The notes beneath the pieces are model-generated. The model did no database searches. It was not told the origin of the DNA and saw only the letters and a list, made by a program, of their open reading frames with translations. From NCBI GenBank assembly GCA_965649765.1, contig OZ287756.1, positions 64,790,001 to 64,854,000 on the forward strand: a stretch of 64,000 nt of DNA, written 5' to 3'. Positions 24,405 to 64,000 of the stretch are shown one piece after another. Positions within the stretch are counted from its first letter, which is position 1. The number at the start of each line of letters is the position of its first letter. The stretch is from Bispira polyomma (taxonomy: Eukaryota). A program made the translations under genes and the position numbers.

Positions 24405-27400
24405 TACACCAAACCACTAAAACTGTCCATATGGAGCAAATACAATGCTACAACCCACAAAATTCCCAGGTAGTATACCTAACTACAAATATCAACCAAC
24501 CATATAAAGCCACCTAAAACTGTCCACATCAACAAAATACAATGTAACCATTAACAAAACCCCATATGTTATACTTATTACTACAAACATCACCTAACCA
24601 TATAAAACTACCAAAACAGTTCATATAAAGCAAATACATTGCTACCATCCACAAAACACCCCATATATTATACTTATAGCTAGAAATATAGCCTAACCAT
24701 ATAAAACCGACATTGTCCATAGTGTATTATACCTATAACTACAAATATCATTTAACCATATCAAACCACCTAAACCATCCATGTCAAGCAAATACATTGC
24801 TACCAGCCACAATCCTTTGTCCCCAGACACCCCATATAATATATTTAATACAAATATCACCCAACCATATTATACCATCCACAGACCCCATGTAGTTTAC
24901 TTATAACTACAACTATCATCCAATCATATAAAACCACCAAAACCATCCATATCAAGCAAATACATTGCCACCATTAATAAAACCCCCAAACATATTATAC
25001 TTATAAATACAAATATTATCTTATCATATATATAATATAATCATATATATAAAACCACAGAAAACCATCCATATCAAATAAATACAATGTTACCATCCAC
25101 AAATACCCCATGTAGTATACTGATAACTACAAATATCACCTAACCATATAACACAACCAAATCAGTCCATAACAATAAAATACATTGCTACGAGACACAA
25201 TCCTTTGTCCACAGACACCCCATATTGTATATTTAATACAAATATCACCCAACCATATAAACCCACAAAAACCATGCATATCAAGCAAATACAATACTAT
25301 CATCCACAAAACCCAATGTAGTATACATAGAACTACAAACATCACCATGTGCTTATAACTAAACTATCAGCAAACCTTATAAAACCACCAAAACAGTACA
25401 AAGCCACAATCTCAAAACCACCTCATACTTATACTTATAACTACAAATATCACCTAACCCTATAAAACCACAAAAGCCATAAATATCAAGCATATACAAT
25501 GTTACCATCCACCAAACCCCATGTAGCATTCTTATAACTACAAATATCACCTGACCCTATAAAACCACATAAGCCATCCATATCAAGCATATACAATACT
25601 ATCATCCACAAAACCTGATGTAGTATACTCAGAACTACAAATATCACCTAACCATATAAAACCACAAAAGCCATCCATAACAATCAAATACATTGCTACC
25701 AGCCACAAAACGAAATGTAGTATACTAATAACTACAAATATCACCCAACCATATAACACAACCAAATCAGTCCATAACAATGAAATATTTTGCTACGAGC
25801 CACAATCCTTTGTCCACAGACACCTCATATAATATATTTAAATACAAATATCACAAAACCATATAAAACCACCCAAACAGTCCATATGAAGCAAATACAT
25901 TGATACCATCCACAAACCCCATGTAGTTTACGTACAACTATACATATCATCCAATCATATAAAACCACCAAAACCATCCATATCAAGCATATACATTGCC
26001 ACCATTAAGAAAACCCCCATATTATACTTATAAATACAAATATTACCATATCATATATATAATATAATCATATATATAAAACCACAGAAAACCATCCATA
26101 TCAAATAAATACAATGTTACCATCCACAAATACCCCATGTAGTATACTGATAACTACAAATATCACCTAACCATATAACACAACCAAATCAGTCCATAAC
26201 AATCAAAGACATTGCTACGAGCCACAATCCTTTGTCCACAGACACCCCATATAATATATTTAGTACAAATATCACCCAACCATATAAACCCACAAAAACT
26301 ATGCATATCAAGCATATACAATACTATCATCCACAAAACCTGATGTGGTATACTCAGAACTACAACTATCACCCAACCATATAAAACAACCCAAACCGTC
26401 CATATCAAGCAAATACATGTTATGAGCCACAATCCTTTGTCTACAAAAAACCCATATCATATATATAAATAGAAATATAAAACCACAAAAACTGTCCAAA
26501 ACAATCGAATACATTGATACCATCCACAAAACCCCATATATTATACTGATAACTACACGTATCATCTAATCATATCAAACCACCAAAACCATCCGTATCA
26601 AGCAAATACATTGCCACCATTAACAAAACCCCCAAACATATTATACTTATAAATACAAATATAAAAAAAAATGATATATATACAACCACAAAAAACCGTC
26701 CATATCAATCAAATACAATGTTACCAGCCATAAAACCCCATGTAGTATACTGATAACTACAACTATCACCCAACCATAAAACACAACCAAAAAAGTCTAA
26801 ATGAAGCAAATACATTGCTACCAGCCACAATCCTCTGTCCACAGACACCCCATATAATATATTGAAATACAATATCATCCAACCATAAAAAACCACCCAA
26901 AATTTTCCATATCAAGCAAAAAAAAAAGCTACCATCCACAAAGCCCTTGTAGTATACTGATAACTACACATATCATCCAATCATATAAAATCACCAAAAC
27001 CGTCCATAACAATCAAATACATTGCTACGAGCCACAATCCTTTGTCCATAAAAATCTCATGTAGTACACTTATAACTACAAATATCTCCCAACCATATAA
27101 AACCAACAAATCAGTCTATATCAAGCAAATATATTGCTAAAACCCCAAAAACCCATATATTATCCTGATAACTACAAATATCACCCAACCATATAAAACC
27201 ACAAAACCATCCATATCAAACAAATAAAATGCTACCATCCACAAAACCCCATGTAGTACACCTATAACTACAACTTTCACCCAACTATATAAACCACAAG
27301 AAACATCCATATCAAGCATATACAATGCTACCGTCCATCAAACAACCCAAATATTGTACTTATAAGTACAAATTATCTGGAATAATATATGTCACTAACA

Positions 27401-28710
27401 TCACATAACACACTATTTACAGATTAAACTAACAAAATACATTTTCACAAGGAACATGCCGTATACTGTTTTATAAGGTTAAATAATTAGGCTTAGTTTC
27501 AACAGTAAAACAGCAGAAATAATATACATTACACACACACATCAACTAAACTATAAAATACACATTTGAGCATCAACTAAAATAAAAATACAATTCTCAA
27601 ATAGAAAAAAAAATAAGTGACACTCAGTGAATATGACTGGATTCTAATACTACAAGCTAATATGTTCAAGTAACACACATTAGATATTTACATGTTGATA
27701 TTTAGAATATACAGAATATACATGTTTTAATGCCAAATCTTTGGCGCTTCTAAAATTACATCAAAGTTTCATAAAACAACACATATTCATGTCAATAGTT
27801 CAAGCTCGGTTTTTGTATCATCCACAATAACACAAATAGTATACTTGTAACTACAAATAACATCAAATCAAACCGCATAAACTATGAAACCCATCCACAA
27901 CAAGCTAATATATTGCTACTATCCGCAAAAACCCAATGTAGAATACGTATAACTACAAATATCACCAACCATAAAAAACCACCAAATCAGTCCATATCAA
28001 GCAATTACATTGCTACCATCCACAAAATCCCATGTAGTTTACATATAACATTTAACCATATAAAATAACCAACACCATCCATATCAAGCAAATACAATAC
28101 TACTATCTACAAAGACCCCGTGTAGTTTACTGAGAACTACAAATATCACCCAACTATATAAAACCATCCAAACCATCTATATCAAGCATATACAAGTACA
28201 AATTATCTGGAATAATATTTGTCACTAACATCACACCACACAACACACTATTTACAGATTAAACTAACAAAATACATTTTTGTTGTATACTGTTTCTTAA
28301 GGTGAAATAATTAGGCATAGTTCTAAATGTAACACAGCCAAAATAATACACATTACACACACATATAAACTAACAATGAAAATACAATTCTCAAATAGAG
28401 AAAAATCATCAGTAACACTCAGTGAATATGACTGGATTCTAGTACTACAAACTAATATGTTTAACTTATACACAATTACATGTTGATATTTAGACTTTTC
28501 AGAATTTATAAATTGTAATTCCAAATATTTGGCGGTTCTAAAATTACATCAAAGTTTAATAAAGTACAATATAGCCATGTCAATAGTTTGAGCTCAGTGC
28601 TTGTGTCAAAAACACATATAGTATACTTATAACTACAAACATCACCTAACCATATAAAACCACAAAATGCGTCCATATCAAGTAAATACAAAGCTACAAT
28701 CAATAGAAAC
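24405..28710. repeat. About 97-bp tandem satellite array with longer variant units and higher-order repeats
   Basis: Unit AACCATATAAAACCAC.AAA.CCATCCATATCAAGCAAATACATTGCTACCATCCACAAAACCCCATGTAGTATACTTATAACTACAAATATCACC; period 97 between 25434 and 25531. Interrupted at about 27364..27830 and 28194..28600. Confidence 0.9.
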
Positions 28711-31276: not shown

Positions 31277-31369
31277 TTAGGTTTTACTCATCAATATTCT
31301 GGTTCTCTTTTTCTTCTTTTGGACAGTTCTCAGTGGAGCAGAGGCCATGTCAGTCTTCTCTGCCTTTAC
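31277..31369 (-). CDS. RNF213: RNF213-like terminal coding exon (VKAEKTDMASAPLRTVQKKKKRTRILMSKT*)
   Basis: Acceptor ttgttttaaatcag|GTA at 31370/31369 in phase 0, matching the upstream donor. Open to TAA at 31277..31279 and followed by AT-rich UTR-like sequence. Confidence 0.75.
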   Translation of the reverse strand, partial: VKAEKTDMASAPLRTVQKKKKRTRILMSKT

Positions 31370-34300
31370 CTGATTTAAAACAAATAACACGGAAACAGTT
31401 AGAAACTAAAAAGTCACTTAGTGGAGTGCACCCTTTCACCAAGGAAACAACCTGATAAAACTGCTAGAATAAGTTCACAGATAATTTGTTCTACTAATTT
31501 GATTCTTTCCTAATTCTTACACCATCCCTCAACCCAAATTCATGCCACTGGGTTCAGAATCTTTTGTTTGATTTTTGTGGCAAACGAACAAGGTACAGAG
31601 ATGAAAACATGATCTAGTTGACTAAAGTAATTATTAAAATACACGTAATTTTAACAGCAAGTTTAAACCACACACTACATACAATACACATATCTATAAA
31701 TTATATCAAGATATATAAAAAAAGTCTCTTTGTTAGCCATTATATGCACAGTATTCTCTACAAAAATAGTAAGCTGTCCAACAGCATATTGTAATGAAAA
31801 ATATAAACCATGTTTATGTAGCAGTAACTATAATTTCATTAACATTTTAATCCCTTTAAATTAAAATAGCATCATTCTTACCTTCACTTTTTCAGTCAGA
31901 CGATCATGAAACCACTTAATATTTTGGATCATCAGTAGGGCTGGAAACTTTTCCCTGAAATTCTCCATCGTGACTGCGGAGTTCTTGTTTTCATAGTTTG
32001 GCCACAGATCCTGGTGAAACAATATTCCTGCTATTGCTAAATCTGGTGATACAACAGTAGCCATTTCAGAACTAATATGCCTAACAATGAGTCTTCTGAC
32101 AGCTGACAGCAACATCAAATCATCTTTTACCTCTTTATCCAAATAATCTTCAGACATTTTGACAACATCCATACTTGGTTTTACAGCATAATTTTCATCT
32201 AGTGACTCCACAAAGACGGTTTTCGCTGCTTCCTCTTCTAGGAATTCATACAGGCTGCACACTTGACTAAGTTTCACATATTTCTGTATTTGTTCTCTTA
32301 AAGTCACTGCTTTGACGTTTTCATATTCAATACCCCACCTTTGTGCATATGTGCCCAGCATGTCTGTTTCTTGTATACCTGTTTTCTTCATAAATATCAT
32401 TACTGTCTCAAGAAAGGTAATGAACGGCCTCAGTGAAATCTGACCAAAATTTTCCCTCAACCCCTCATGCAGGGTAACTTTTATATTTTCTGTCAACTCT
32501 ACTTGCATGAATTTATTTCTAAGCACTGTCACTGAGTGTCCTCCCTGATGAAATACTTCATTCCTGTACATTGTAAATGGAAATTCTTCGCCAAGCATTA
32601 AGTAATTTTTCCCCAGCATTAAATCATCGGCCATATCTTTTTCTATCTGAGCAAGGTTGTAGTTTTCCCAAAATCCTTCACCGTATCTCAGGTTATTTTG
32701 GCAATAGTTTGTAACTCCTTCAGGTAGATCAAACCTAATGACATTTGAATCTTGAGCTGCTTGTAAGTGAATGGTGGGGACTTCTACAAATGGTCCTTTC
32801 TTGAGAAATGAAAGACCTTTACATCCTGCTAGTGTGGCTATTGCAGCTTTTTGTATGAATACATTTTGAATTGCACACAGTACAGACATCACGTGATACA
32901 TTGGGCTATTTTCATCCTTCACAATACAAGATGATACAGGAGATAAACGGGTTACTTCAGGGATAGAATCTGAATGACCAATTCTTGACTGTACTACTTT
33001 TGAACATCTCACAGCATTCCAGCTCTCCTTAAACTGGGTGAAGCATTTTTTTCTTCTATCTTTTTCACTAACATCCTGATAGATGAAGTCATCAATTTGC
33101 AGACTTTCAGCCTCTTTCTGGGACATCTTTACATTGATACACGGGTATAACATCAGGTGCCACATCACAATTGGAAGAAGATGGTTCAAAAGTAACAGTT
33201 CTTCTTTGTACATCAGCGCTATGTGTAAGAAAGGACACACTTCAAACCTACTAGAAGCAATCTGACAACACATCTTCTCAATTGTTGGCATAGTACGATG
33301 TCTGCATATTAGGGAGTAACCATTGCTATTATCATTGTCACATTCATTGAGAATAGCAAGTAGGTCAGTCTTTTTAACCATCCCCTTGGTAAATTCTGTC
33401 AACATACTCTGTCGCTCTTCAAGTATGGTGTTGCAACATTGAACAAATTTAGCAGGGTCAGTCGCATTTATCATTTCTGTATTTTTCAACAACATATGAA
33501 GAAAGAAAGTCATTTGTTTAGCTGAAACATTCATGGCTGCGACTAAACTGTTCCAGTGGCTCTTGAAATGATTAAAGGTTTCATCTAAAGCTTCGCTATC
33601 CATCTCAGGTTTACAGTTTGCTTCTACGAGCATACATCCATGAAATAGAATACCACCTATGTGAAAAGTAGGTGTTTGGCACTTATAAAGTTGGGTTGCT
33701 TTGTAGCTATGTTTTGTCACAATGTATTTTTCTTTACAAGTATCACAATTTGCTTCATGACTGGTACTGCAGAATATTACATGATTACACTTGCAAGAGA
33801 TCATCTGCATTTCTGTTTCTACACTTTTGACACACAGCCTTGCTACATCACACAAGAAGTTATTTTCTGATCCAGTATTTCTGAGAATTTCATGCAGTAG
33901 CTTGCCTGAATTACTGACAAATACAGTGAATGTATGTAGCAGGAAGCTTGCTTGCAAAAGTGATTCATAGGTTGACTCTTGTGTTATATTCAAAATCGAA
34001 TGTACAAACTCCTTTCTTCCAAGAACACATTCCAGCAGTTCTTTTGCATGATCATGAAAAGGTGCAAGTTCAATTTCCTTAATTGCTATTCTATGACTGT
34101 GTTCAAGAGGTTCAATATATCTGGGCCAGTAGAATCTTTCTGCTAAGACTGCCACAACACTTTCAATATTGCTATAATCCAAGGCTAGTCTGCCCAGCAC
34201 ATCAGCAGTACCATCTAACGCAGCCATCTCGTCTTCTGCACACATGCCTCTAAAACCAATTCCACTCTCTAATGTATTTGTTGGCCATGGAATGTCTGTC

Positions 34301-37300
34301 ATGTTTTGTCCAGCTGACGGAAACATTGCAACTCTCTCTTTCAAATCTTTCAGCGAACCCATATACAATTGTTTCAAAAAATAGACCTTTAATGGGTTCA
34401 AACTCTCTTTATCTTGTTCATTCCAGGTGAGAGAGGCATCAACTCTTTGAAGTGTTGCTCTTTCTGCATTCACAGAATTGGGGTCACCTAATATGAATTT
34501 GGCTACACTCTCAATAAAAAGCCTTGCATAGGAAACACAAACAATATACTTGACAGACCAAGTTTCTGATCTCTTTATAAAAGCAACAGCATGTTGAAAC
34601 CTCTGTATGGAACCTTCACTCAAGTCAAGACTTTCAAAAAGTTGGTCTGACATCATATTTTCCACCACATCATTGCAAAGACAAATGCAAACATGAAAGT
34701 CAGTGACAGGGATTGGCTCTAAAAACTTTTGCAGTTCATCAATATCAATGACAGCTTCATCTGTTTGTAGCACTTTCAATAACGTATCTTCTTTGGCTAA
34801 AGTGTACAACATCCTCTGAATGATAGGGCCAGCATACACCACCAGCAGATCTAGGTTCTTTTGTCTGGTAAGGTATGTTATTGCATCAATTCTCCTTGGA
34901 GTGTTAGGATTAGCATCTAAGCAACGTAAAAAGTACATCAAAAGAATCTTCTGAATACTTAGAGCACTTAGTCCATCTGTTTCTGTGGATGATTCAAAGT
35001 GCTGGTAGACACTGTCACAATCAAATATGCCTTGGTCTTCTGCTGTGGTGTCTTCTGATGTCAATACTTCCTGTGATATTTTGTCAAGAAATACCACACA
35101 GTGCTCCTCTGTCTCAAACACAGAAGCCATAAATATATCTCTACATAGCCTGAGAAAGTGAAGTAATTCAGAAAAAGGATTTACCTTTGATGCATATGCC
35201 AGCAATTGACTACACTTACAGTACCATTCATCAAAACAGGAAAACTTTTCTAGACATGTTCTCACTGGCATCAGACTTCTACAAAGACATGTGACTATGT
35301 GTTCATCGATATCAGTATCTTCTGCTTCCTCTTCACTTGCAGATTGTGTAATTCTGTAAGTTTTTAAAGCATTCATAACATCTTTTCTTATTGAACTTCC
35401 ACAACCAGCCAGTAGCTTTAACAGCTGTTTAACTTTCTGTTTCTGGAGGGCCCATGTCAAAATCATTATTATTATGTCATCTATCAATTGTTCTCCTGGT
35501 AATGATAAACAGTGTCCTTCAAGGAACAGCCTACAAATTACACTTGCACTTTCATCATAAAAATCATCTTCACTGTTACTGTTGATGGTGTGGGATACAC
35601 TTAAGTAAAAGTCATGTTTCAGTCTTTCAAAACTCTCTCTATCACATTCCTTTTGGCCCAAGTGATCCGAGATCCGTTGTTCAATAAGACCAATATACCT
35701 ACGTATTAAACTACCTCGATCTTCTGGTATAATATCTTCAAGTGAATCAATCCCACCGATGTTCTCTCTCATCAGAAACAATTGGACAACATCATCAATT
35801 TCCTCTAGCAGATCTCTACTGTAAGGTAAATTATAATTAACTGGAGAATGAGTAACCACAAATCTTTCTGTTTCTGATGATTTACTTTTGGCCGACTTGT
35901 AGTGAGAAAATTTTCTCTGAAACATTTCCTCCCATCTAAATTTCAACCAAGAAGTACCATGGCCGTCTATATCTGTGTAACTCCACCAAGATGCTGTGCT
36001 TTCCAAAAACCAGATTAACTCTACAAGGGCATTCTTAACTAAATCTTGCAGGTGAAAATTCAAAGCCCCATGTAATGAACCACCCTCGAGCATTTTCACT
36101 GGATTTTTTGCCACATCAATGTACCAGTTGTCAGTGTGATAAACATTGACTTGTGTTGTAACGGGTAACTGTTCTGCATACGTCATGATTTCTTCACAAA
36201 GAAAGTTCAATAAGCATTCACTCCTTTGCATAGTGTCACCCACTCTCCATAATCTTTTTGCAGATCCTCCTAAGCTTGAATACTCCAAACTTCCCAAAGC
36301 CCATACTAAATTATGGCTTATTACATCCCTTACTGGACAGAAGTCACTCTTCAGCAAATCGTGTGGTGAATTGCCTAATAGACCAGATCTAATAGGAAAC
36401 TTTGTCTTTTCAATCATGTCTAATGTAAATAGTTCCCAATCATTGGTATAGTCAAATTTCCATCCATGACACTTTTTGTCTTCTGATCTTGACAAATGTA
36501 TAAGAAAAGCCACATGTTTCACAAGCCCACCAGGCAAAACTGACTGAATGTAAATTTGTCGCTCATTTTCTATCAGCAATTTTGCAAGAAGCATATGCTC
36601 ACTGTCTAAAGATGGTTTACATTGAAGCACAAATAGAACCTTGTCTTCACTGAAAAATTTGGATATCTGATTTGATAACTGTTTCTCAGACTTGACTGCA
36701 CTAAGCTTTTCAACATGACATAGAATACCAGGGCAGAGTCCATGTACATCTGTATTTATGTCAGTGTTTGTCATGATAACATATTTCTTTGGCACTTCAC
36801 CACCAAGTCCTTCAGCATAAAAAAAATCCTGAATACCATCAGTGGTGTGGTAGTCAAAATAGGCTTCCTGCATTTCTTCAATATCTTCGATCCCTTTTTC
36901 TGCCCATCGTGACAATGACATCCTAAGTACTGCACTTGGAGGGCATGTATAGAGCAGCAGTTGTTTGCATCTCTCAATGACATCTTCCTCTCTATCTTTG
37001 GATTTCTGTACTCTGTGTATCAATGATGGAATACTGTCACTCTGAAAGCCAAAAAATGCATCACCTGTGGTAAATATTTTGCCCTCTATATGACTGACAT
37101 CTGCAACCCATTTCTCCAGTGTCTTCACAACTGTCCGTTGAGAAGAAGAGAGCACTTCCTCATATAGTAATATCTGCTTTTCAAAGCGATTTAAGAAAGG
37201 TGGATCTGAATAGTCAACCTTTGTCCTGTCTACAATGACAATGCACTTGAAATTATCATGTACCACACACATTGGATTGCTGTAGGCATCTAATGCAATT

Positions 37301-40300
37301 CTGCAGTTTTTCTTTCTGCCAACAATGGTATAGTTCTGATTCAGCATATCATACAAAGAACCATATACACTTTCAAGATCCTTCAAAATTAATACAACAC
37401 CTTGTTCCATGCACAGGATAATTTTACTGATTATCCGATAGTTGTATTCTTCGTTCATGTCTTCTTCGAATTTGCTGCCGTATATAATCTCACAATGTCT
37501 TCCACTTGACCTCAGGATTTCTGAAATTAAACCGAGTGAAGAGTCACCACTAGTGATGATCATTAAGTGGCGACTGCTACTGTCAGCCAGATTTTCTTCA
37601 ATGAGATTCTTTACAACTGCACCATGGAAATGTTTTATACCTGGTCTTTTAGAATTTCTTTCAAAAGACCTGGCAAATGCCCCAGTGTCATTGCACAAAC
37701 CTCCAAAATTTCGGCTGATTCCTGTCATAATTAAGGAGGAAATTTCCTTGTGGTGAGCAACTGTGCTTGTTGAATCATATCTTGGACATAAGAATTTAAC
37801 AAGAGAGTAAAAATCTCTCAAACCATGAAAGTTTTTCATTGGTTGTGTATCATGATAATGAAAATATGTCACTGCCAGCGTTTTGAGAACATCATTTGGT
37901 ACTCTGTTTTGAAAACCATCTCTTATGGCCATTCCTGTATCATAAAGCTCATCAGCTGTGAGATCTGGCCTTGACAAATGCACAGCCCGATTCATTTTGG
38001 CAGAATCTAAAGCCCAATTAGAAATACCCACAACTGCAACATCAGGGAAATCCCCTGCATCTGGTTCAAGCAAGGTATGGAGAACTTTAAGAGGATTGAA
38101 CTTGGAAATTTCAGCCAAGCCAACTTCATCAAGCAGAACCACTGGCAAAATGTTTTCAGTTCTCTTGTGCCTTTTGTAATTATTGGCTTTTTCAAACACT
38201 TTTTGGATGCCTTCTGAAGTAGATGATTCAGAGCCCTGGTATGATACTATGTATAATTCTGGTAAAGTCTGAAGAAATTTGTCAACAGAATCTGGTCCAC
38301 GGAGACTGCTTTTTAACACTTGTACTGACAATGATTTGCTACAACCAGGTTTCCCTACAAGGAAAATAGGAATCCTATTCAACATACATGTCAAAATCAC
38401 AAACACATTTTCTCTTAATGCAGTATTCTTTGCTGTTCCATGTGGTAGTATCATTCGATTTAGGATATTCATTTGTTCCCATCGGACAAATTCTGTAACT
38501 GTATCTACTGTTTCAGACATCTCTGCAGTAACAGTTTTCCAATAATCTTTCCTCATAGTAGTTTTAGGCATTCTTACCTCATATGATAGTGAAAGAGACA
38601 GTATCAAGGCACGTATATGGCAAGACATAGCTGTAAATTTGAAGGGCAAAGACTGGTTCTTATGCCTAAAGATGTGTTTATCTTTATTTGTTAAGAATTT
38701 CAGAAACCATTCTATCAGAGTTTTACATCTATAGACATCCCTTAGACTCACAGCTGACATACTTATCTCTGTTTTTCTAACAAACTTCTGTGAGGCCATG
38801 AGGATGTCGGCTATTTTAGGCAACTCTCCTTCCAAATCGCCAACCATTCTCTTTATATACATCAGTTCATCTGTCTCATGAAGTGTTCCATAATCCCATA
38901 CAAAGTCGATCATTGTTTCTGGCAGTGGATGCACCCTGTATACTAGCTGTGAAAACTCATCTGTTCTGGCTTTTTCAGTCAAACCACAGGATAGAATTTC
39001 ATGCTCTTCTCTTAGTCGGTAAGGATTACAAGCTGCTAATGTCACCAAGTTGGGGGACAATTTTTTGCCTCCACAAGAATGACTGGTAATGATTTCATTC
39101 AAGAGGCCAAGATGATTGCATGTATTTATTTCATCCAAAAACAACCAGTGCTGTTGGTCTAAGTTTTCCATTGCAATGGTATTACAGGTTACTACCTTTT
39201 CGAGTATCACATCTTCAGTAATCCCCGCATGAAACTGTAAGTCATAAAACTTAGCATCACATGTCTTTGCCAAGTATTTCACCAGTGTTGTTTTTCCACA
39301 ACCAGTCTCACCCATCAGCACAACAGGTACACCATTCTTAATTCTAAGAATAATCAGTACCATTTTTAATAAATTGTCTGGTGTCAATGCGTATGTGTCA
39401 CATAGATGTCCCAATCGTTTCTTGACATTTGAATCTTTTTTATCACAAACTAGTCTTTCAAGGCGATTTTTAAGGTCATCCTGGGGCAATGTTGTTAAGT
39501 CTGGTAGTGGCTTTTTCAACTGGTCTTGAAATAGTTGCCGAATATCTTCAGGGACATCAGATACATTTCTGTATAGAGCTGATACAGTGGCACTGTCTTG
39601 AAGGTGAAACAGCAACAATAAATGATTTGATGAATTCCATTGTATCATTCCCTTGACCCGGTTTACCATTTCATCAACTTCTGAGCTTTTTGTACCTCGA
39701 ACTGCAGATACACTTTGATGTTGTGATGATTTGCAAGCTGCAATTGATCTACATGAGAATTCCTTTGACATTGCAATCAGTTGTGTGACTATTAATTCTC
39801 TTACTGAATGTGCTTTTTTCTGGTCTCCAAGCATTAAGCAAAGACAATTTATTTTGAAATATTGGCTAACGGTGAGTTTTCTCAACTGATCTGCAAGAGC
39901 CTCCAAGAAAGTGTTTACAATGCTGAAAGACAAATCTGTGTCACCTTCAAATGTTTTCCTCAGTAACATTTGACATCTGTTTGATTCTATTGGTGCTGTA
40001 ATTTCAGATATGGAAACATCCTCCTTTCCAAAGCCATCTTCTTGTTTCAGTCTCAGATACTGGCAAACTACTTGGACTGCACTATATTGTTCCATACTAA
40101 CCACAAAATCGGTAAAGTTTGTCCATTTCAAGTGAATGGTTTGAAAGCATGATGCAATATACAAGGCATTCTGAAGGTAGTTATTCAGTGTGTTACAAAT
40201 TTCAATAGCTACATGGTCTGTCTTGAGTTCAAAGTAATGTGTTTCACACAGCGCAAATTTCATAACAAGTACTTCAAAAAGTAAATGGTCTAAAACTTGG

Positions 40301-43300
40301 CAATCATCAAGGTGTCCTATGTCTAAGTGTAAAACAACATCTTTGGAGACATCTGCCATCTGAAGTTGCTTCAACAAACTTTTCTTAGTTTGTAACCCAC
40401 TGACAGGAACAGTAACAATGCCTTTCTTTGCTTGTGCAGCAATGTCGTGTATCTTTTCTGTTTTGCCCAATCCAGGCAAATCTGATGTGACCATATATAC
40501 CAAAGGGCATGCCAACTGCAAGCATTCTTCAAGCTTCTGGGCTGATAGACCTGGAATTTTGTGAACCTTATCCCTAAATGAGTCTAAGAAAGGATGATGA
40601 ACATCTGACCTGCAGATAAAAGCTAACAAAAAATCTGTGGTACTAGTGCTTAACATTTTCATCTCTTTCATCAAAGAAAAAAGAACATCATATTCAAGCA
40701 TCTCAATTCCAATTATGCAATGTAGACTTCTGTCCCTGTGATATCCATAATGGGATCTGTTCAGCAGGATCATGCATTCCTCAAATGTTGTTTGCTCATT
40801 ACAAAACAGCAGATGAGCAGGCAAAGGAAACAAACCAGTGGTGTTTGCATACATTGATAATACTACTGGCATAACATGTGGATTTTTGGAATCAATGTGT
40901 GCAATAAACATATTTCCTACTTCTACTCTGGAATCTATGCTGTTGTCGCCTTTAAGAAAAACGTTCTGTTCATCTGCCAAACTTCCAACCATTACAGCTA
41001 ATTGTGTCCCTAAATAATGCAATTTCATATCCACACAGACATCACCATCATCTTTGAGTGGTTCAATTTCAGTGCAATTAATGTTTTTTGCACTAAGCCT
41101 CATATATCTCAGTATACCAAGAGCTTCTTTGTTAACACGACCTTGACTATTAAAATACTGGAAGACAATTGATAACTGTTTACCATGCAAAAAGTTCAGA
41201 TAATAGTGTTTTGATCGCTGATAAGCTAATGCCTGTTCCCATTCCTGAAGCTTGCCTTGCAATTTTTCTTTCCAGTTGGCTAAATGATCTATTTTCTCTG
41301 TGATAGTTGGTTTTGTAACCTCACAATCCAAAACATCAAAGTCAAAATGACCTGCTCTGCTAAGTTCCTGCAACACAAGATCAATTTCATTGACCAAATC
41401 AACAAATTCCACAAAATTTACAAGGTTTCCAGTTTTATTTTTTTCATCTGGTTTAACTTTTTCTGTATTGCTAATAAGCAAAGCACGACTTCTCAAGTCA
41501 GACATGTCAGACAACTGATAAACTTTTTCTTTGCCTTCCGAACATTTTACTGATGTTGTAACAGTATCATTATGCAAACTAAAAACTACAATTCCATCCT
41601 TCAATATACGTCCGACAGTATGCTTTGTTACTTCTCCCCTGTTTGCTACATTCATGTACAGAGCCTTTAAGCTGTTACAATTGTGTGCACAATTGTTAAT
41701 TCTCTGTGGAGCCTGTGTTTCTTTAGTGCTGAAACATTTGTTCAAGTGACGCATAAGCTCAGACAAACTTAGACTTTTATTCTTGGTACATTCTCTTAAA
41801 ACTGGATGAAGCATGTTCTTTAGTTGAATGAAATCTGATACAATACCTTCCTGCAACAGTTCATCAGAGTGTTCTTCTACTGCATCAATTAGATTGCGCA
41901 GATCTTCATCCTGAACACTAATGAGAAACTCTATCAAGCCTTGACTTGTGGACAATTCTGCAATTACCTCCCACTGATACTCTGTTTGTATCTGCTTTGT
42001 TTGCTCTAAAAATGATTTACTGTTCCTGTAAAGTGTTTCAGTTTGTAACAAATGTGTGTTCTGTTTCATTTCAAGCATGCTCTTTACAGCTTTTAGTACT
42101 GGTTTTGTGTCATCAGAATCTAACATAAACACAGTGGGCAGCTTTACTAAATATTCTGCTTTGTCTGTGTTATAATCAAAATCAGCAATATTCCCAAGCA
42201 CAACACTAAACATCTCTGGGATATTTTGATGGAGAACTCGCTCAACCTCTTTTACTTCTGCCATGATGTCACATTCTTTGAAGAAGTTTTCAAGATCAGC
42301 AACCAAAACAGATTCCTTCCGCATAAGCAGTGCCATTGCTTTCTCATGGTAGCTTGGAAGTAACTGTTTACTGACATAATCTACAACATCATTTGCATTT
42401 GCATATTCTGTTGAATCTATAACTTCAAAATGCACAACCAATGAATCATCAGAACCTTCATGTAATTCATGCCTGGCTTCTGATGCTCTTTTATCTTCCT
42501 TTGGAGCTGAATAATCTGTTGTATCCTTATCTTTAGAACGTTCACTCATTGAATCACGAGAATGTTCTGGTGACATTTTGTCATCTTTGATATCTGTTTC
42601 TTCAATAGCTAAATCTGCAAATTCTGTCGATCCAAAACTATCAGATTCATCTGTTCCAAGTTCAGACCTAGCACTGTGAACGGCGACCACAAAGGGATCA
42701 AAAGTGTCAAGAATATGATTTTTAAAAGACTGCATAGATGATACTACATGCAGCTCTAAACAAGAAGATAGATGCCACACCTCTTCCCAATCTTGATGCT
42801 CAAGAACATCAATTATGGTGATTTTGCTATTGGAAACATCACAGATAAACTCTTCCAACTGACATTCTCTAGCAGACAAATTCACTATTCTACATTTATT
42901 TTGGGAAATGAATTGAAGCATCTTGTTGGCTTTTTGTAAGGACTCTAAACAACTATCTAATTCACCAAGTGATTGCTCCAATCTCTTCACCAAATGTGGA
43001 TAATCATGTTCAATAGAATTTTCAAGGACAACATTCAGAAATGACACACAGTTCTTTTCACCTGTTGTTTTTAGGAGGTCAAACAGCCATTTAGCATACA
43101 TTGGGCACATATGTTGATTCTCCAAAACCTTATACAAATTTGTCAAAAGAGTTCTCAGATGTTTACTTGTACGATGAGATGTTACCTTTCCAGCTTCAGG
43201 CCCTTTACATGTCATTATTCTAAACCAAAACTTCCAGTTTTGAAAAATAGCACTGATTCCTTTCATATCGTCATCACCTACTCCAAATGCTGGGTGTTTT

Positions 43301-46300
43301 GATAACAATTCATCCATGAACATATCATATGTAGCCCTAAAAGAACAACATAGTTACACATTAACGAATTACTCCTTATAAAGAACACAATATTCTAACT
43401 AGAGTACTGCTTTGCAAATGAAAAGAAATTGTTTTTGCACAGCAAAAACAAAGCGTCTCAATAAGACATTGAGCAATTTTCTGCATATACCCTTCGAGCC
43501 CTTTAAATTTTGGGTAAGTTGCTGAGTATACTGAGTATACCCTCCGAGCCCAAAAAATTTTAATTTTCTAATTTTTTAAAAATTTAAAATTTTTGAAAAA
43601 TGTTTAAATTTTGAAAAATGTTAAATTTTTGGGCAAGTTGCTAAGTATACTGAATACACCCTTTGGGCCAAAAATTCAGCCAAAATCGCTCTATTTCGCA
43701 CCGTTTCAGAGTTATTAAGAATTTTTATATATTTTGTTGAGATATTAAGGATTTTTGCAAAATTTTGACTTTTTTAAAAAAATTTAAATTTTTTTAACAA
43801 TTTTGAAAATTTTGACTTTTTCACTTTTTAAAAATTTTTTAAAAGTTTTGCATTTTAAAAAAAATTTAAATTTTTGAAAAAAATTTAAATTTTTGGGCAA
43901 GTTGCTGAGTACTGAGTATACTGAGTATGCGCTCTGGGCCCAAAATTCAGCCGAAATTGCTCGCACTGTTTCCGAGATATTAATAATTTTTCATTTTCTT
44001 CGTTTTGAAAAATTCTAACGTTTAATTAATCGTTAATAAGTCGGCTATTTTGTATCTGATCGCTTCCCAAAGTTATCTACTGCCGGACATCTATATAAGA
44101 AACCTACTTGCCAAATTTCATGAGAATAGGTAAAGCGCTTTTTAAGTTATCATCCGGACAAGCACACCCCTTTAAAAAACGTGTTTTTGGTCATGTGACT
44201 TGATAGGTCGAAATGTGATGGCACTATATTGAAATTTTTTTACCAGGGCTACTGCATACATGTACAAAATTTGAAGAAGATCCAACCAGTGGTTGCTGAA
44301 CTATAGCAATTAGAAAATACGGGAGCCGGCAGAGCAGGCAGAGCCGGCGGCCCTTTCCGCGTGAATCTTCAGCTGTATACAATAAAAGGGAAATTTTTTG
44401 TCACGCCTTATCAATTGGCTATAACTCAGCAACCACTGGGTGGATTCTCTTCAAATTTGGCATATGTATGCAGTAGCTCTTGGGCAAATTTTCAAAATAG
44501 TGTCATCACATTTCGACCAATCAGAGAAGTCGCATGACCAAGAACGCGTAAATTTTACTCCTATATACAAACAAGCGCCCTTACGGGACGCTTAATAAAG
44601 AACCAAAGTAAGACACAAACAGTACAAACATAAGCACATATATCATGAGTTTTCTAACACTTTCGCTTTAACTGCTATCATATCGTTTTGCACAGAGACC
44701 TAAGTCAACATATTTCTTTCAAATTATATTTCACTAAAACTGAGTACAAAATGTTGTACTGACAATAAAAACTTATTATGTTTTTACCAATTGAGAATTT
44801 AAATACATGTAGTTAAAACATGTTTCACGATCTCATTTTAAAGTAATTGATTTTATTTAAGGAGTTTTTATTAAATGTGGCATGTCCATATAAAATTAAT
44901 GAATTCACCCAAAAAATAAATCAACTATGCATCGACAATCCATTCTTCATTAAGAGCATTTTAAAAACTATATATGCTAATAATCAATGATGCATCTATT
45001 TTACATAGAGTATACAGCATACCCAAATTTCATGCAGGCAGACTCACAAGAAAGGTGTATAAAAATGGGGGGATAAAAAAAGTGCTATGCACATTGGATT
45101 GTAGCTATTGAAGGCACTACATTATAAGTGTAGTAATATATTAAAATATCAGGTAGTTTCATAATAATTATGTTGGATTGGCTTAATGAAAAGTTATCTT
45201 CAAATAAAAGTACAGAAGTACCAAAGACCAAGTAGGAGATGTGTTGCTGATACATATCATTTAAATTTTTCAAATAGAAGGGCACAAATACATATTGAGA
45301 GGAATGTCCAAATTCAGAACATTCAGAGATATTTTGAAGACAACATATTGCCCAAATATGGTGTGTTGGGTACTACTACTGATTTGCCCTCAACTTTCCC
45401 TGTTCTCTAACACTCACAAAATGATGATTTTGCATGTACCTAAAATCAACATATTGAAAAATGTAAAGTCACTAGGAAAAGGTTTTTTGGCCCGATTGAT
45501 CTGTAAATCTACTGACGTCTGGATATTATCATACATAAGGTCCATACTAAATCTTATTGAGGTAAGAAGAATACTATCACAAAAAAGTTAGTAACAAGCA
45601 GGTGTAACATAAAAAATTGTTTTTGATACAATGGTGAAAAGTAAAAAAGTTACAAGTCAAACATTCCCGCGTCTATAGAAGAGACCTGCAAAAAATCTTA
45701 ATGATAGCAATTATAACAAGACCTAGCGCAACCGATGGATATTTGTATCCACTGGGAACATAAAGCACCCTAGGTAGGAAGCACTATAGCTAGCACCCAA
45801 GTTAGCAGCCTATTATATGCTGCAGGGCATTTTTTTACAGAAGTGTTAGGGCCAAAATGGCACAAGTGGCTTTGACATTGCAAACTTGTGGGAGCAGTAA
45901 TAAGTGTGAGATAGGTGCTTTTAAGTTCAGCCATCCCTGTTTGACCTTAAAGGAGAGGCCAAAGGCCAAATTTGAACACAGCAAAAGATTCCCACCCCAT
46001 GATTTCCTATAGCCTTCTTTTACACCCTAAACCTGTTTGACCAAAAATAAGCACGATATAGGCACTTTTAAGTTTGGCCATCCGTGTTTGATCTTGAAGG
46101 AGAGGGCCAAGGTCAAATGTGAGCACATCAAAAGATTCCCTACTCATGATTTCCTATAGGTTGGTTCCAGATCCCAAACTTCTGGGACCAATAATAAGCG
46201 AGATATAGGCACTTTTAAATTTGGCCAAAATCAGTCACTTAGTGTACTTTGGCACTTTGTCGATGACCTTGAATGAAGTGATTCAAGGTTAAATGTCTGC

Positions 46301-49300
46301 ATGCTTAAACAGGACATATATATGCGTTAAACATATCACCCATAAAGAGATTCAACCTTCTTCAGCAGAGAAACAGACAAAGTTGGTCAATACAAAAAGC
46401 ATGATTATTTTTAAAGAAACGCCTGTGGCGGCCATCTTTATTTTCAAAATGAGGCCAAAATTACTCACAGGCAAGCTTTTCTAAAAAAAAGCATTTCCTG
46501 TAAATTTGGGGAGCCTTGTAAAAGTTTTCTCATGACAGTGGTAATGGCAAAATCCAAAATCCAATGTATCCAGCGGAGTTTTCCGGTGGATACAATAAGG
46601 GAGATTTTTAAAGGAGACCATAATGCGGCGGCGGCAGCAACAAAACCATGGGTGAATCCTAAAAAGTGCCATTTTCAAGGGATGCTTAATTATGAACCTA
46701 CATTTTGTCCAGGTGGATAGGCCCTGGTCCAAAAACCTCCTCTAAAATCTTTTCATTATCCCTTTCCCAATCAAAGTTTTGTCGGTGAAGCAACAGTCTA
46801 GCCTTGCACTGTCTTTCAAAGACATCTCTTGACGTTTTACTGAGACCCATTGCATTTTCCCATGCCTCCATAAGAACTTCTACTTTTATTTTGCAAACAT
46901 CAGAGTACACAGAGTCTTCTAAAATTTTAATTAGTGCAGCATCTTTGGCCACACATTCCAGTTCTAAGATATATCCAAGAGCTACATAGAGATCCAACAC
47001 TTGCTCAAACGCTTTGCTTCTATGTTGCTTTAAAAATGATTTCCCCTGATTCAGCCAATGCAAACATATGTGGTGGTCCTCGGCTTCCAGTGAAGTGTAT
47101 GCCTTTTGTACATACACTACAAACAGTGAGTGTAGCTGTGGACACTTTGATTCTGCTAAAATTTTCATCAACTCTCTGGAGTTGTTTTTGCTAAATGTAA
47201 GATCAGATAAAATGTTCTGAGAAAGCATGTTTACTTCGTCTTCACTCCAGTACCTTGAACTAAATTTTACAATCTCAATTATTTTATCTTCGATAGGAAT
47301 CTGCACTTTGAGTAACAGATCCTTCCCAGCATGTGTAGTTAATTTCTGAACAATCTCTGCAATCATCCTCAGAGATTGCCTCTGATAGGAAGCAGCATCA
47401 ACTATTTCTTTTGTTACTTTAGCAATAACTTCCTTCTTTACACAATCTTGAATTTCTTGACATAATTCCTTCTGAATCATCTTTGACTTGGCTATTGTTT
47501 TTACTGTTTCTAATATTTTTTCAAAACTTGAGGCTTTCCTGACTACTAACAAGAATGGCTGAATCGCTTCTCTGCCATATTGCTCGACACAACTCGCTAC
47601 TTTTGCAAGACACTGGTCCAACCCAGTTTCTTCTTTGCCCCTTTCATATTTAACCATTTCAACCACACATTCACTCGTTAGGAATGGAAAACAAAAATAA
47701 ACCACCTCAAAGGTCGTCATGTGCTTTTGAAAGGCCCTGTCAAACAAGTGTCTACATAGACTACCAAGTAACATAAAATCTGTTTTGCTGGGAAAAATGT
47801 CAAAGCATGACTTGTATACCACATCTAAGCACCTTTTAGCAACAGCTTTAGAGATATCCAATGTGATACTACTCTTTTTGAAACAAGAAGAAAGTGTATG
47901 CAGCAAGCACAATAATTGAGCATCATGACTTTCATGTAATAGATCCAGTAACTTTCGGAGAACTCTAAACTTCTTTTCTCTGTTAAGACTGTGAGACTCA
48001 ATCAGGCATGCAACAACATGTTGATCTTGCAAAATCATTATATTATCTTTCAGATTTTCATTTGAAGTCATTTTGCTGACTATTTCAACAATAATTCCAC
48101 AGCCGTCATAAGTGTCGTCTTGTATATCTTTATGAGCTGTCACTGAAGGGTCAGTAAATATATGATAAAAGTTATTCATAAGAGGCAAAGGTTTGTACCA
48201 TTTTTCTTCGACATCTTTCGAACCACGTATTGAACTAAACAATTGGTATTTGGTGATACCAAAACGACACCTATAATTGGCACAATCTGACACCAAAACA
48301 GGTAGATTTGTTTTCCACACACATTCATGGATATCTGATCTCTTGAGATTACATGACTGTTCTTCAGTGTTGTCCTCATTAACTGTTACCCATGCCTCAG
48401 TTGCGTTTACATGATGAGGAATGACTAAATGTATAGTCATGCTTATTTTCTAGAAATAAAAATACATATCTCAATGTTTATTAAATTAAAACATTTCATA
48501 ACATATGTCATGATAAATATGATACAGTATAATGATGCTTTGATCAAACAGCAAAATGATTATAGAACTAGAAATATGTATCACAAACAGAAATGCCCCT
48601 GGCATCACTGCTAAGCATATGTGATTAACATCGCAGTCATTTACTGTTATGCTATTTGTAAAAGGTAATACATGAAAATAATACAGGAAGATATTGTACA
48701 ACATAATATATTATTACTTATACCATGGATCTGATACTAGTTAATTCTATTAACCCATTAATTAATACAATATTCTTTGTATATAAATATTGATGAGTGA
48801 ATCTCACATTCCTCCATCCTGGAGTTCAAGATGGTTGCCAAAATCATAAAATTTGTGAAAAGTTACAATCACTCTATCACGCACCGTTTACGAAATAGCT
48901 GGTCAAATAAGGTCAAATCGCTCTATCTTGCATCGAATGGCTCTATCTTGCACCGTTATGAGATAGTGGACATTTCCAGAAAATAAGCAAAAATTCAAGA
49001 TGGCCATCATTGTCGTAAAATTTGTGAAAAATTGTCATAGACCCTGAACAAGATACCCTGTTGACCAAGAATGAAGTCAAAATCACTCTGCATTTATGAG
49101 ATTGCTGACATTTCCGAAAAAGACAGAAATTCAAGCTGGCTGTCAAAATAGTAACACTTGTAAAAAGTTGTCAGATCCAAACAAGAGGAGAATGGACTGG
49201 CGGCCATATCATGACAATGCCACTACAAAGCAAGTTACTGACGAGTCTGGAAATAGTGAACCAGTCATTACTCAGCGATCGAAATGGATTTGAGAACCAT

Positions 49301-52300: not shown

Positions 52301-55300
52301 ACAAAGCGATTTAATGAGACATTGTGTCACGTCAAATGTATTTTGATGGCTGCAAAAAATGGCAGGAGAGCGATTTCTGCATATAATCATGCGTAAATAA
52401 AACGGTCGGCAATCAGTCAATTATCATCCGATTGATCAACAGCGTCTCCCGGCCAGAAAATTGCCTTACCAAAGTACACTCAAAATTTTATTGAACTGTG
52501 ACAAATATTTTGAGAAAACCTAGTGAAAGGCACTTTTACACCCCCGGAGTCACCTGACTTTTAAGTAGGCTAAAGTTCAAACCCAAGAATTTGAAAAAAA
52601 AATCTCATTCCTGGTTAATAGCCAAAAATAATTTTGATGCAGATAATATTGAAAGAGATATTCAAGGAAGACCATGCGGCGGTGGCACAGGTGGCACGTG
52701 TGGCGGCAGCTAGGAAACCTTGGGTGAAACCAAATAAGCGCCCTTTTCAAGGGACGCCTAATCAATACAAACATTCAGACTTGCACATCTGAGAGGAGTG
52801 ACAAATGTTAGTCCCTTTACCTCAGTTGTTTCAGGTGGTTTTGTCGCAGCTCCTCCACCTTTTGCCTTGGTTCTCTGCTGAGGAAACAAAACATATTTGA
52901 AACCTCGCATAATAATTCAACAATTACTTTTTCCCTGGCAATAGGACAGATTTACAGCAAGCTACATTGACAATGAACAAATTTGTAGAAAAAATTTAAT
53001 TAATACATTTGCATATTTCTCTAATTGAATGGAAACATAAAATTAGTTGCAGCTGTGGATGAAAAAATTTCAAAGCACACATAGTCAAAGTTTTTGTTTG
53101 TGATTCATCAATATTTTTAAGATAAAAACTGGTAACATTGAAACCCTAAAGTTGACTTTCCATTAGATTAAACAATAACAAAGTATCAAGGACATACATA
53201 CTGACACACATGAAATTTAAAAGAGGAACCTGGAAAAAGATTTGATTGATTCAGGTTTAACATCACTTTTTACACATTGTATAGGTCATATCCAGTTTTC
53301 CTGGTGGGAGAAAGCAGTGCATACTAGTCAGAAGTGGGAGGCGAGTGTTACAACTGCACCACCAAGGTCCCTATTCAAAAAGACAGTCTTTAGATTATAC
53401 ACCGAATACAAACAAACTCACTAACTGACACTGAAGTTAAAGCTTGATTAAAATATTGAAGTCAACAAGGATGAAATTATATAGAGATCACTGTGAATAC
53501 AGTCAAATTTCAAAGATTGTTACTTACCAAGAAAACTGTGGCCATGGGCCACGTATCAGAGTTTGCTATCTGAATGCATGTACAACAAATTGGCGAAACA
53601 TGTGATAAAAAACAGGTCAAAATATCCATATTATTCCGAAAATAGTGAACCATCAGAAAAAATTAAAGAATTGTCGGGGACAGAAAAATTGGCTTACAAA
53701 AGTTTTAGTTATAGCTCACGGCTCCTTAAAGTTCGGTTCCTTAAATAACATATTTTATTTCTACCTACATTTGGTATTTATATTAATTTCACGGTATTTT
53801 CACTGCCATCCAGTTGAGGTTATATATTGCTAGGAAATCTCAGATTTGCAGTCAATCCCGTCAAAATTACCCAAATTACCCTTATGGGAGGTAATTTAAA
53901 ATAAACTTTTATAATGAATTTATTTATAAGGAATTAATTTTATATGAATGTAGTATTATATGTATTCCAATAAATAACCAATGTATTGTTACATTTATTT
54001 TTCATTCGATTTGGGGATTATAATATACAGTGCAGGAATTAATTTTGTATTGATGTATTATTATGTTTATTCTTTATTGGATTTGGAATTATATAATATA
54101 CAGTCTAGGAGTTATTTTTTTTATGTTTATTCTCCACAAATATAATTATTTTATCTATATTTATTTTTAGATATAGACAATTTTAGAGCTACTACCCAAG
54201 ATTCAGGTGAGTAGGGTGAGTTTTTCCAAGTTATAGGTTGGAGACAAAAAATAATTTATTTTGATTTGTATAAAGAACTACAGGTTTACCACAGAAACAC
54301 AGGGCCAGGACGATTTTCTCCAAGCTAAAGGTTAGACACAAAAACAGCAATTAATTTTGAATTGTATAATAATACCTACAAAACACAAAAACATATGAGC
54401 AGGGCGATTTTGTCTAAGATATAGGTTGGAGACAAAACAAAAAATCAATAATTTTGACTCGTATTAAAAACTATAAAACACAAAAAGATACGAGTAGGGC
54501 GATTTTGTCCAAGATATAGGTTGGAGACAAAACAATTAATAATTTTGACTTGCATGAATCACTACAAAACACAAAAACATATGAATAGGGTGATCTTCTT
54601 TAAGTTACAGGTTGGAGACAGAAAACAATTAATTCTGATTTGTATGAAGAGCTACCTGATTACCATGAAAACATATGTCCAGGGATATTTTGTCTAAGTT
54701 GAAAACAATACAGATACATCCATTTAATCACATTAAAAAAACTTCTATACCTCACAAAACCATATGAGCAGGGAAATTTTGTCCAAGACATAGGTTAGAG
54801 ACCAAAAAACAACTAATAATTTTGACTGGCATGAATCACTACAAAACACAACAAGATAAGAGTGGTCCATGGACCACATCGCCAGATGACTGACAATTTG
54901 CATCGATTATCACCCACACAGACTCGATGCATCGAAAACCCAATTTTAAACTAAGTAAAATGCTGATACATACCTAAGCTTTACTATATTATATGTTGTC
55001 CCAAAATCCAACTTCAAATTTAGGTGTAAAATGAACATAAAGTTACCTTTTTATCGATCTATTAATTATATTTGCCCTATGCGGCAATGTGTTTTTGGGC
55101 AAATACTAAAATTCAGCAAATAGGGAGTAAAATATACACAATCGAGTCGCAAAGCCCATGATACATGCCCAAAACGATTTTGTCTAAGTTAAAGGTTGGA
55201 GACAAACAAAACAACAATTAATTTTGACTTGTATGAATCACTACAAAACACAGAAACATATGTCCAAGATTTAGGAGACAAAAAAAAAAAAAAAATTAAT

Positions 55301-60281: not shown

Positions 60282-60504
60282 TGTTGAGTACGGCGTACGA
60301 TAACCTCACCATCGTATTTGAGTTTTAGTATGAACCGGAAGTTGCCGACCGCATGTCGCAGAAAGCTAGCGTGGACTTATGTTACAGTATATATATTGTT
60401 TGTGTATCAGCGGTTTATCACATCATGAATATGAAATAAAGATAATAAACTAGTATTAATATTGTGTCTATCTTCCTACAATGGCAGCCTCCAACATTCC
60501 AACA
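60282..60504 (+). repeat. 5' LTR of the copia element (223 bp)
   Basis: TG...CA ends with a 5-bp inverted repeat, internal TATATATA and AATAAA motifs, PBS directly after. The left edge cannot be confirmed without the 3' LTR. Confidence 0.7.
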
Positions 60505-63500: not shown

Positions 63501-64000
63501 GTTGTATGGGTTGATGACATCATAATTGCTTCAACAAATGATGAAGAATTATGTAAAGTCAAAAACATGCTCAATACAAAATTTAAGATGAAGGATATGG
63601 GTGCATTGTCACTGTTTTTAAACATCAATTTCACTTTTAAAGATGACTGTGTTGAGATGGATCAGGCAAGTTATGTTGACAAAATGTTGCAAAAGTTTAA
63701 AATGGAGGATTGTACGCCAAAAGGCACTCCTTGTGACTTAAGTGTGAATAAGTTAAGAACTAGTGATTCTACTCCTCTTGACGATCCAGAACTGTATCGA
63801 AAAATTGTTGGAAGTTTGATTTACATAATGACATGTACTAGACCAGACATATGTTACAGTGTAACAATGTTGTCCCAATTCCTGGTAAATCCAACCAAAG
63901 CTCATTTAGAATGGGCTAAACATGTCCTAAGGTATTTAAAGGGAACCCAAAATCAAAGCCTGAAACTTTTCAAATGTGAAACTTTACAGTTGTACGGTTT
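60481..64000 (+). pseudogene. copia gag-pol polyprotein, disrupted
   Basis: Zinc knuckles CYTCGQPNHKSYQC and CSRCKSSLHTDREC; protease LVDCGATAH; integrase WHKTMGH..CNVC, DLAGP, FVDDYS, RSDNGTE, NGTVER; RT YKARYVAKGYSQ, QMDVKTAFLNG, LYGLKQSGR, WVDD (63507..63518). Frameshifts near 61669, 62133 and 62545, and an in-frame TGA at 62643..62645. The RT frame is open from 62646 to the window end. Confidence 0.9.

Follow-up and report, generated by a model that had tools for sequence, protein, structure and literature searches.

A giant coding exon in Bispira polyomma belongs to a second deep clade of animal RNF213 and probably encodes a sensor or scaffold rather than a ubiquitin ligase

The 64,000-nucleotide stretch of the Bispira polyomma genome analysed here (the window) contains a coding exon of 11,455 nt. 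In our judgement this exon probably forms the main part of a gene with three exons, which belongs to an ancient second clade of RNF213 and whose product serves as a sensor or scaffold powered by ATP and does not itself transfer ubiquitin. RNF213 (mysterin), the moyamoya gene, is an immune ligase that ubiquitylates LPS.

The giant exon comprises one base followed by 3,818 codons in a single stop-free frame (frame 2), against 365 and 295 stops in the other two frames of 31882-43336; the chance of a frame remaining open over this length at 37.4% GC is about 1e-115. It is bounded by a pyrimidine tract with an AG acceptor and by an AAG/GTAAG donor, and its AG and GT ends are in phase with two neighbouring exons, the donor of exon A being phase 2 (Table 1). 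The uninterrupted exon of the preliminary description therefore stands, as do its canonical, phase-matched splice sites, in so far as these can be read from sequence. Splicing would join the three exons to give a protein of 4,428 amino acids. Three modelled exons compare with dozens in mammalian RNF213, and the human gene has 68. The basic tail specified by exon C, an addition relative to mammalian RNF213, has counterparts in annotated relatives and, as separate last exons, in loci L021 and L026. Three public sequencing runs from one study contain the giant exon at single-copy depth with no listed letter difference, which argues that it is not an assembly artefact, although the runs may derive from the source sample; judged by their cover of the introns they are DNA, and their contigs carry no splice joints for the gene.

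Table 1. Features of the giant-exon gene, with positions numbered from the first letter of the window
Feature	Position	Strand	Details
Exon A	46702..48449	minus	about 580 codons (583-codon ORF); in-frame ATG at 48440; AG acceptor and GT donor
Predicted beta-sandwich of seven strands, positioned where RNF213 has CBM20	48159..48446	minus	AlphaFold2 strands, residues 2-97
Upstream (5′) intron	43337..46701	minus	3,365 nt, phase 2, repeat-rich
Giant coding exon	31882..43336	minus	11,455 nt; encodes the remainder of the stalk, the AAA core, the E3-module scaffold and the C-terminal domain
AAA2 P-loop	40459..40476	minus	the Walker B after it is degenerate, in keeping with a site that binds only
AAA3	39130..39312	minus	Walker A 39289-39312, Walker B 39130-39144, intact; aligned to human RNF213
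AAA4	38125..38355	minus	Walker A 38332-38355, Walker B 38125-38139, intact
E3-module scaffold and C-terminal domain	31882..35376	minus	predicted RNF213 fold, model pLDDT 77
Place of the canonical RING (RING absent)	34993..34998	minus	from aligning 20 clade proteins with 20 others
Four-cysteine zinc ribbon at the RZ-finger position	33709..33795	minus	C3187, C3189, C3203, C3206 (ORF numbering)
Downstream (3′) intron	31370..31881	minus	512 nt, phase 0, no repeats
Exon C	31277..31369	minus	short lysine/arginine-rich tail and stop

An open frame of this size might conceal in-frame introns that are spliced out, in which case the mRNA would lack a one-piece exon. We regard this as very improbable: relative to its closest relative, P0001 (58% identical), the window protein has no insertion of at least 8 residues, and both of the two gaps are insertions in P0001; identity is 44-74% in every 250-residue block; and annotated relatives align along the span of the giant exon. 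In the same comparison the N-terminal parts evolve fastest (44% identity, compared with 72-74% for the AAA core), as they do in mammalian RNF213. This conservation profile, together with dN/dS values of 0.10-0.25 among coral-like copies, supports the purifying selection proposed earlier, and at 0.19-0.25 the E3 half is evidently still constrained. Transposons are expected to be absent from a working exon. The description of the adjacent introns as saturated with repeats holds for the upstream one, 64% of which is repeated within the own-genome DNA compared (depth above 40,000 in repeat bins), but not for the downstream intron, which is 0% repeated with flat depth.

Animal RNF213 falls into two deep clades, with support of 100 in three trees, and each spans cnidarians, lophotrochozoans and deuterostomes; of the origins suggested previously, that of an old separate clade is thus supported, and it sets the gene apart from mammalian RNF213. 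The same giant exon, with the same layout and intron phases, is present in the coral-like metagenome loci L021 (12,505 nt) and L022 (12,568 nt), whilst L023-L025 match this layout at the 5′ side and P0371 (44%) and P0372 are ORFs of the same size as exon A. Among 94 database proteins, which are coral-, octocoral-, oyster- or gastropod-like by their nearest named protein at 60% identity or above, 87 begin 1,100-1,360 aa N-terminal to the AAA3 Walker A and extend at least 2,450 aa beyond it, the span of the giant exon. Echinoderm, amphioxus and brachiopod members of the clade are annotated proteins only, the exon layout being known from other members. Since intron phases are the same and positions near-identical in the coral-like loci, the layout would predate the cnidarian-bilaterian split. 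The giant exon is the standard layout of the clade, no local oddity, and a handy clade marker. It had been considered that every invertebrate RNF213 gene might normally have such an exon; this is true of the clade but not overall, as the genome also contains three paralogues divided into many small exons. RNF213-like or uncharacterised proteins of Lingula (P0002), Haliotis (P0027), Ostrea (P0107), Asterias (P0023), Branchiostoma (P0028), Nematostella (P0067) and Montipora (P0118) belong to the same clade and share its ribbon and basic tail; they carry either the ligase name or none, and we found no paper that treats them as a distinct clade, nor any literature description of the giant-exon clade. 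No vertebrate member occurs among the matches listed.

In the B. polyomma genome we found one giant-exon copy, a lower bound, and three intron-rich canonical copies, each of which appears as 26-28 separate matching segments (median 171-180 nt) per 50-kb stretch. No local expansion was seen, and the expanded family that had been envisaged is not apparent in this genome. The presence of intron-rich paralogues is what a recent retrocopy, or a recent product of intron loss, would call for, but their identity to the giant-exon gene is only about 42% on the best shared segments. Forcing the window gene to group with them costs 603 log-likelihood units in an AU test (p-AU 9e-6), which rules out a processed retrocopy nesting with an intron-rich parent of the same genome, and the exon and its phases are common to coral-like loci. 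We therefore consider the other two origins first suggested, retroposition and intron loss, extraordinarily unlikely as recent events in this lineage.

The AAA core is homologous to that of RNF213: a phmmer search matched 9 PDB sequences, all of them RNF213, at E values of about 1e-125. [quoted passage not shown] The gene product thus shares with mammalian RNF213 (PDB 6TAX, 7OIK, 8S24, 9JW1) the AAA core, active-type AAA3 and AAA4 and the AAA2 P-loop, as well as a predicted E3-module and C-terminal fold with a zinc site where RZ lies. The N-terminal arrangement, in which exon A is predicted to carry a beta-sandwich followed by a helical stalk, also appears to be shared. No sequence match of the sandwich to CBM20 was obtained, nor a fold match in searches that covered mainly the helical part; for exon A these returned generic helical repeats, with RNF213 only at ranks 6 and 8 (one run excluded chains of more than 3,000 residues). 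The N-terminal profile of exon A matches annotated Montipora, Nematostella and Branchiostoma proteins and did not reach canonical RNF213. Bacterial DUF5717, a lead under 0.9 in an atlas search with exon A, was set aside.

The E3 half differs from that of mammalian RNF213 in its motifs. By pattern count the RING is found in 0/119 clade members and in 47/89 canonical ones, the same pattern being missing from 42 of those 89 canonical invertebrate proteins. At the RZ position the clade has a Cys4 ribbon, which matches the canonical RZ region in a profile-profile comparison (probability 99.5, E 8e-23) and whose four cysteines are present in 45-46 of 46 aligned sequences; in the predicted zinc site CxC replaces the canonical C-x3-H. 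The RZ catalytic motif, which carries the Cys/His dyad, occurs in none of 114 clade members and in 86 of 97 canonical ones, and the IGG motif gives the same counts (0/114 and 86/97). The catalytic residues of the RZ finger of RNF213 and their necessity are as described in the part of PMC12075652 available to us. Pfam RZ has no match in the window protein or in 10/10 clade members scanned, and is found in the outgroup-like locus L027. The predicted scaffold nevertheless resembles RNF213, all 9 Foldseek matches of the E3 half with E up to 0.001 being RNF213 (best 6TAX, E 1e-17, TM-score 0.45). The E2-binding residue pattern, present in 11/107 clade and 20/83 canonical members and absent from the window protein, is too variable to give a clear contrast, and atlas matches of the E3 half to RZ-bearing clusters were leads under 0.9 only. 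Separately, a K/Q/E-V read-through pattern was noted in 77/89, counted without a chance control.

The exon had been said to hold nearly the whole mysterin machine. By length it does (3,818 of the 4,428 residues in the model); by function it does not, as it has neither a RING nor the RZ catalytic motif, a lack that the preliminary description did not mention. The absence of the RING and of the usual ubiquitin-transfer motif makes the clade protein likely to be a sensor or scaffold and not a ligase. It could instead still work as a transthiolating ligase, through a rearranged ribbon (Cys3195 with His3215) or through a different conserved cysteine in the E3 half, which we think unlikely. The spacing is close to that of RZ: the CxxC follows Cys3195 by 8 residues and precedes His3215 by nine, where RZ has 9 in each case, and the window protein alone among 102 ribbons has both a loop cysteine and a histidine nine residues past the last zinc ligand. 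These residues are, however, private to the window protein; neither is present in P0001, and the clade as a whole has the cysteine in 9/102 ribbons, several of them pattern misregistrations, and the histidine in 6/102. A hidden nucleophile might be sought among four other cysteine columns (ORF positions 2691, 2737, 2811 and 3476), moderately conserved in 37-39 of 46 sequences, and the E3 scaffold and C-terminal domain are wholly kept under purifying selection, but of all cysteines in that half only the four that form the ribbon are nearly invariant.

Canonical invertebrate RNF213 (rnf213-alpha-like; molluscs, nemertean, hemichordates, amphioxus, corals and the three copies here) shares the overall architecture of the giant-exon clade and differs in keeping the RZ catalytic motif, this genome's three copies lying outside the count given above. 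L027, a non-animal RNF213-like sequence in one 4,677-codon frame, is 42% identical over AAA3-AAA4 and also has no RING but, unlike the clade, its RZ retains a catalytic Cys-Gly. Its placement near the giant-exon clade rests on a long branch, and scans of viral and prokaryote genomes gave no relatives of its AAA region. The giant-exon lineage may descend from a RING-less branch outside animals.

By analogy with mammalian RNF213, ATP binding and hydrolysis at AAA3 and AAA4 would drive assembly of the sensor or scaffold on foreign or damaged membranes. The ubiquitin signal, if any, would be supplied by a partner, for example the canonical RZ-bearing RNF213 type also encoded in this genome. In the part of PMC11549300 available, RZ-dead mutants of mammalian RNF213 retain the ability to coat Toxoplasma vacuoles, and the RZ-dead human protein forms no coat on bacteria, so a bacterial coat formed by the clade protein would need a partner. 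An immune role for the clade is suggested by kinship only. The RNF213 body plan could also have been kept for housekeeping, as a non-immune ATP-driven scaffold or remodeller at, for example, lipid droplets or organelles. The single copy found here, the stable three-exon layout and the low dN/dS fit such a conserved role, but among the matches listed corals, sea stars, abalone and Lingula have several clade copies per species, and evolution is fastest in the N-terminal parts, as in mammalian RNF213; we think it improbable, slightly more so than an active ligase. We lean, with some reserve, towards a second RNF213 lineage that predates the cnidarian-bilaterian split, with three exons and a ribbon that has lost its dyad: a natural pseudo-ligase in which the ATP-driven recognition of targets is uncoupled from ubiquitylation, and which acts as a partner or regulator of the canonical enzyme.

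A giant exon is in itself of modest interest, and the biochemical absence of the ligase motifs is the more interesting point. The label 'E3 ligase RNF213-like' covers invertebrate genes of both clades, and the RNF213 expansion or induction reported in bivalves and cnidarians, as far as the available parts of these papers go (PMC9993606, PMC13319465), would therefore need sorting by clade. The retention of motor and scaffold, with the catalytic motif dropped, points to a function of RNF213 without ubiquitin transfer, for which this clade provides a natural control.

The giant exon of the RNF213-like gene lies in a minus-strand stop-to-stop frame of 3,830 codons (43353-31864), of which there is one in the window and in which residues are numbered here. 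As the preliminary description had it, the exon is 11,455 nt long. It consists of 3,818 codons and a single additional base, and is bounded by an AG acceptor and an AAG/GTAAG donor. An upstream frame of 583 codons (exon A) terminates at 46702 with a phase-2 donor, and a short exon from 31369 carries the giant exon's frame onward; modelled from sequence, the gene would encode 4,428 residues from an ATG at 48440, with extra 5′ exons possible. A profile of exon A retrieves the N-termini of annotated relatives, and exon A is therefore part of the same gene. It is predicted to form a beta-sandwich, which may correspond to CBM20, followed by helices. Over the giant exon, no difference is listed against the contigs of three runs, all belonging to a single study. 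The repeat saturation described for both adjacent introns holds upstream (64% repeats) but not downstream (0%).

A metagenome scan yielded seven loci (L021-L027), in six of which a long frame comes after an exon of roughly 590-610 codons. The giant exon measures 12,505 nt in L021 and 12,568 nt in L022, both with the phase-2 acceptor and phase-0 donor of the window gene; L023-L025 have the 5′ junction in common with it and lose the rest at contig ends, and L026 has the long frame and donor, its acceptor not being picked up by the pattern used. A short basic last exon closes L021 and L026, and the tree places L021, L022 and L026 together with Montipora. Among the best 120 of 1,729 protein matches, 94 are without a species label, and 87 of these cover exactly the extent of the giant exon, as a gene caller blind to introns would produce; the closest of the 120, P0001 (3,831 residues), is 58% identical to the window protein. 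From this common layout it follows that the giant exon is the clade norm in cnidarian-like sequences and, we infer, in mollusc-like ones, the clade members from echinoderms, amphioxus and brachiopods being represented by annotated proteins. The giant exon is a real feature, yet an ordinary one within its clade, and that introns are concealed inside it is very improbable. The coral-like L022 has a single in-frame stop (L022:7139-7141) near the start of its otherwise open 12.5-kb exon: a null allele, a young pseudogene or an assembly error.

A midpoint-rooted AAA3-AAA5 tree (58 rows, quick method) bears out the earlier suggestion of an old separate clade. Canonical RNF213, including vertebrates and three own-genome paralogues, is split from the window gene and its brachiopod, mollusc, echinoderm, amphioxus and cnidarian relatives, with support of 100 in smaller trees excluding L027. 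Cnidarians and bilaterians occur in both clades, which would place the split before their divergence. Named vertebrates number zero among the best 120 of 1,729 protein matches, which does not in itself prove absence from vertebrates. The paralogues cluster (support 99) with proteins from nemerteans, leeches and molluscs, making a lophotrochozoan host likely. Within 50 kb each of them matches in 26-28 separate segments, and many of these stop at common guide positions. The C9 paralogue sits on a long branch, and that at C1:93.3 Mb has a short exon piece duplicated near region position 25591-25665. Origin of the window gene as a recent retrocopy of such a paralogue is vanishingly improbable, since forcing them together is rejected (p-AU 9e-6); the clade's intron-poor state may reflect early intron loss, or introns may never have been there. 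The expanded family envisaged earlier finds no support in three own-genome searches, which gave at least one copy of the giant-exon gene and at least three other RNF213 loci. Species-unlabelled canonical frames of about 1,170-1,300 residues lie over the AAA core, and this sequence pattern suggests that some canonical genes, likely vertebrate, similarly have one large AAA-core exon.

Features of the window outside the RNF213-like gene, and paralogues elsewhere in the genome
Feature	Position	Strand	Remarks
Rhodopsin-family GPCR, single frame, 408 codons	16710-17933	+	Pfam 7tm_1, E 3e-54; possible neuropeptide receptor (impression)
Copia-type LTR retrotransposon (gag, protease-like, integrase, RVT_2)	60460-63998	+	Disrupted across four frames; extends past window
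Long degenerate array, AT-rich unit of roughly 97 nt	24411-28130		Downstream of RNF213-like gene
Array, 91-nt unit	54208-54633		
Array, unit about 142 nt	55470-56406		
Short frame, putative decayed LINE reverse-transcriptase end (impression)	8055-8453	+	Pfam search: no match
Intron-rich canonical RNF213 paralogues (L001-L015)	G000 C1:93.30-93.35 Mb, C1:106.53-106.59 Mb, C9:12.76-12.81 Mb		

Neither a second animal RNF213 clade nor its exon layout was found in the full-text literature, as represented by titles and abstract openings (most subscription papers lie outside). RNF213 expansion in symbiotic bivalves (PMC9993606) and induction in Nematostella (PMC13319465) are described without a clade being named in the portions of text available. 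Clade proteins are already deposited in databases under generic names.

All nine PDB sequences matched by the window protein are RNF213, as are 9/9 Foldseek matches (E up to 0.001) of its modelled last 1,173 residues (pLDDT 77). Walker A and B motifs are present in AAA3 and AAA4, with a P-loop in AAA2, a pattern known from mouse RNF213 (PMC7311170). The AAA core is 72-74% identical to that of P0001; the corresponding figures are 46-65% for the E3 half and 44-45% for residues 1-500. Purifying selection, proposed earlier, is upheld by dN/dS among L021, L022 (with its one in-frame stop) and L026 of 0.18-0.22 in the stalk, 0.10-0.12 in AAA and 0.19-0.25 in the E3 half (NG86, dS up to 1.2).

The ligase elements differ. 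Among proteins long enough for the region, the RING pattern occurs in 0/119 of the clade (close variants and three loci included) versus 47/89 canonical proteins. Many canonical invertebrate proteins in P0251-P0370, molluscan ones especially, have RZ and lack RING. In RNF213, zinc is held by four residues of the RZ finger; Cys4462 serves as nucleophile and His4483 as base (mouse numbering), and activity is lost when the nucleophile is mutated (PMC12075652). The RZ-flanking region is homologous in both clades (probability 99.5), and the clade has at this position a CxC...CxxC ribbon whose four cysteines are kept in 45-46/46 sequences. Where the region was located (114 of 121 clade and 97 of 120 canonical proteins), the catalytic motif is found in 0/114 versus 86/97. 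The outgroup-like L027 retains the catalytic Cys-Gly, so the clade is marked by loss of the dyad motif and not by the CxC knuckle. L027:11-14041, probably from a protist, is a single RNF213-like frame of 4,677 codons (29% GC) that has an RZ finger but lacks a RING.

The protein might still be a ligase through a hidden catalytic site: among 102 ribbons, the window protein is the one case in which a loop Cys (3195) is combined with a His (3215), both close to the spacing in RZ, and four more Cys columns are kept in 37-39/46 sequences. However, P0001 has neither this Cys nor this His, and we consider such a site unlikely. A non-immune role for the window protein is somewhat less likely still. The clade protein has been shown to retain motor motifs and scaffold with ligase motifs absent. 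RNF213 coats require ATP binding and hydrolysis; RZ-dead mutants continue to form them on Toxoplasma vacuoles but fail to do so on bacteria (PMC11549300). We favour, with some confidence, a role in which ATP would drive assembly of the window protein on target membranes and signalling would run via partners, possibly canonical RNF213, the protein itself not acting as a ligase.
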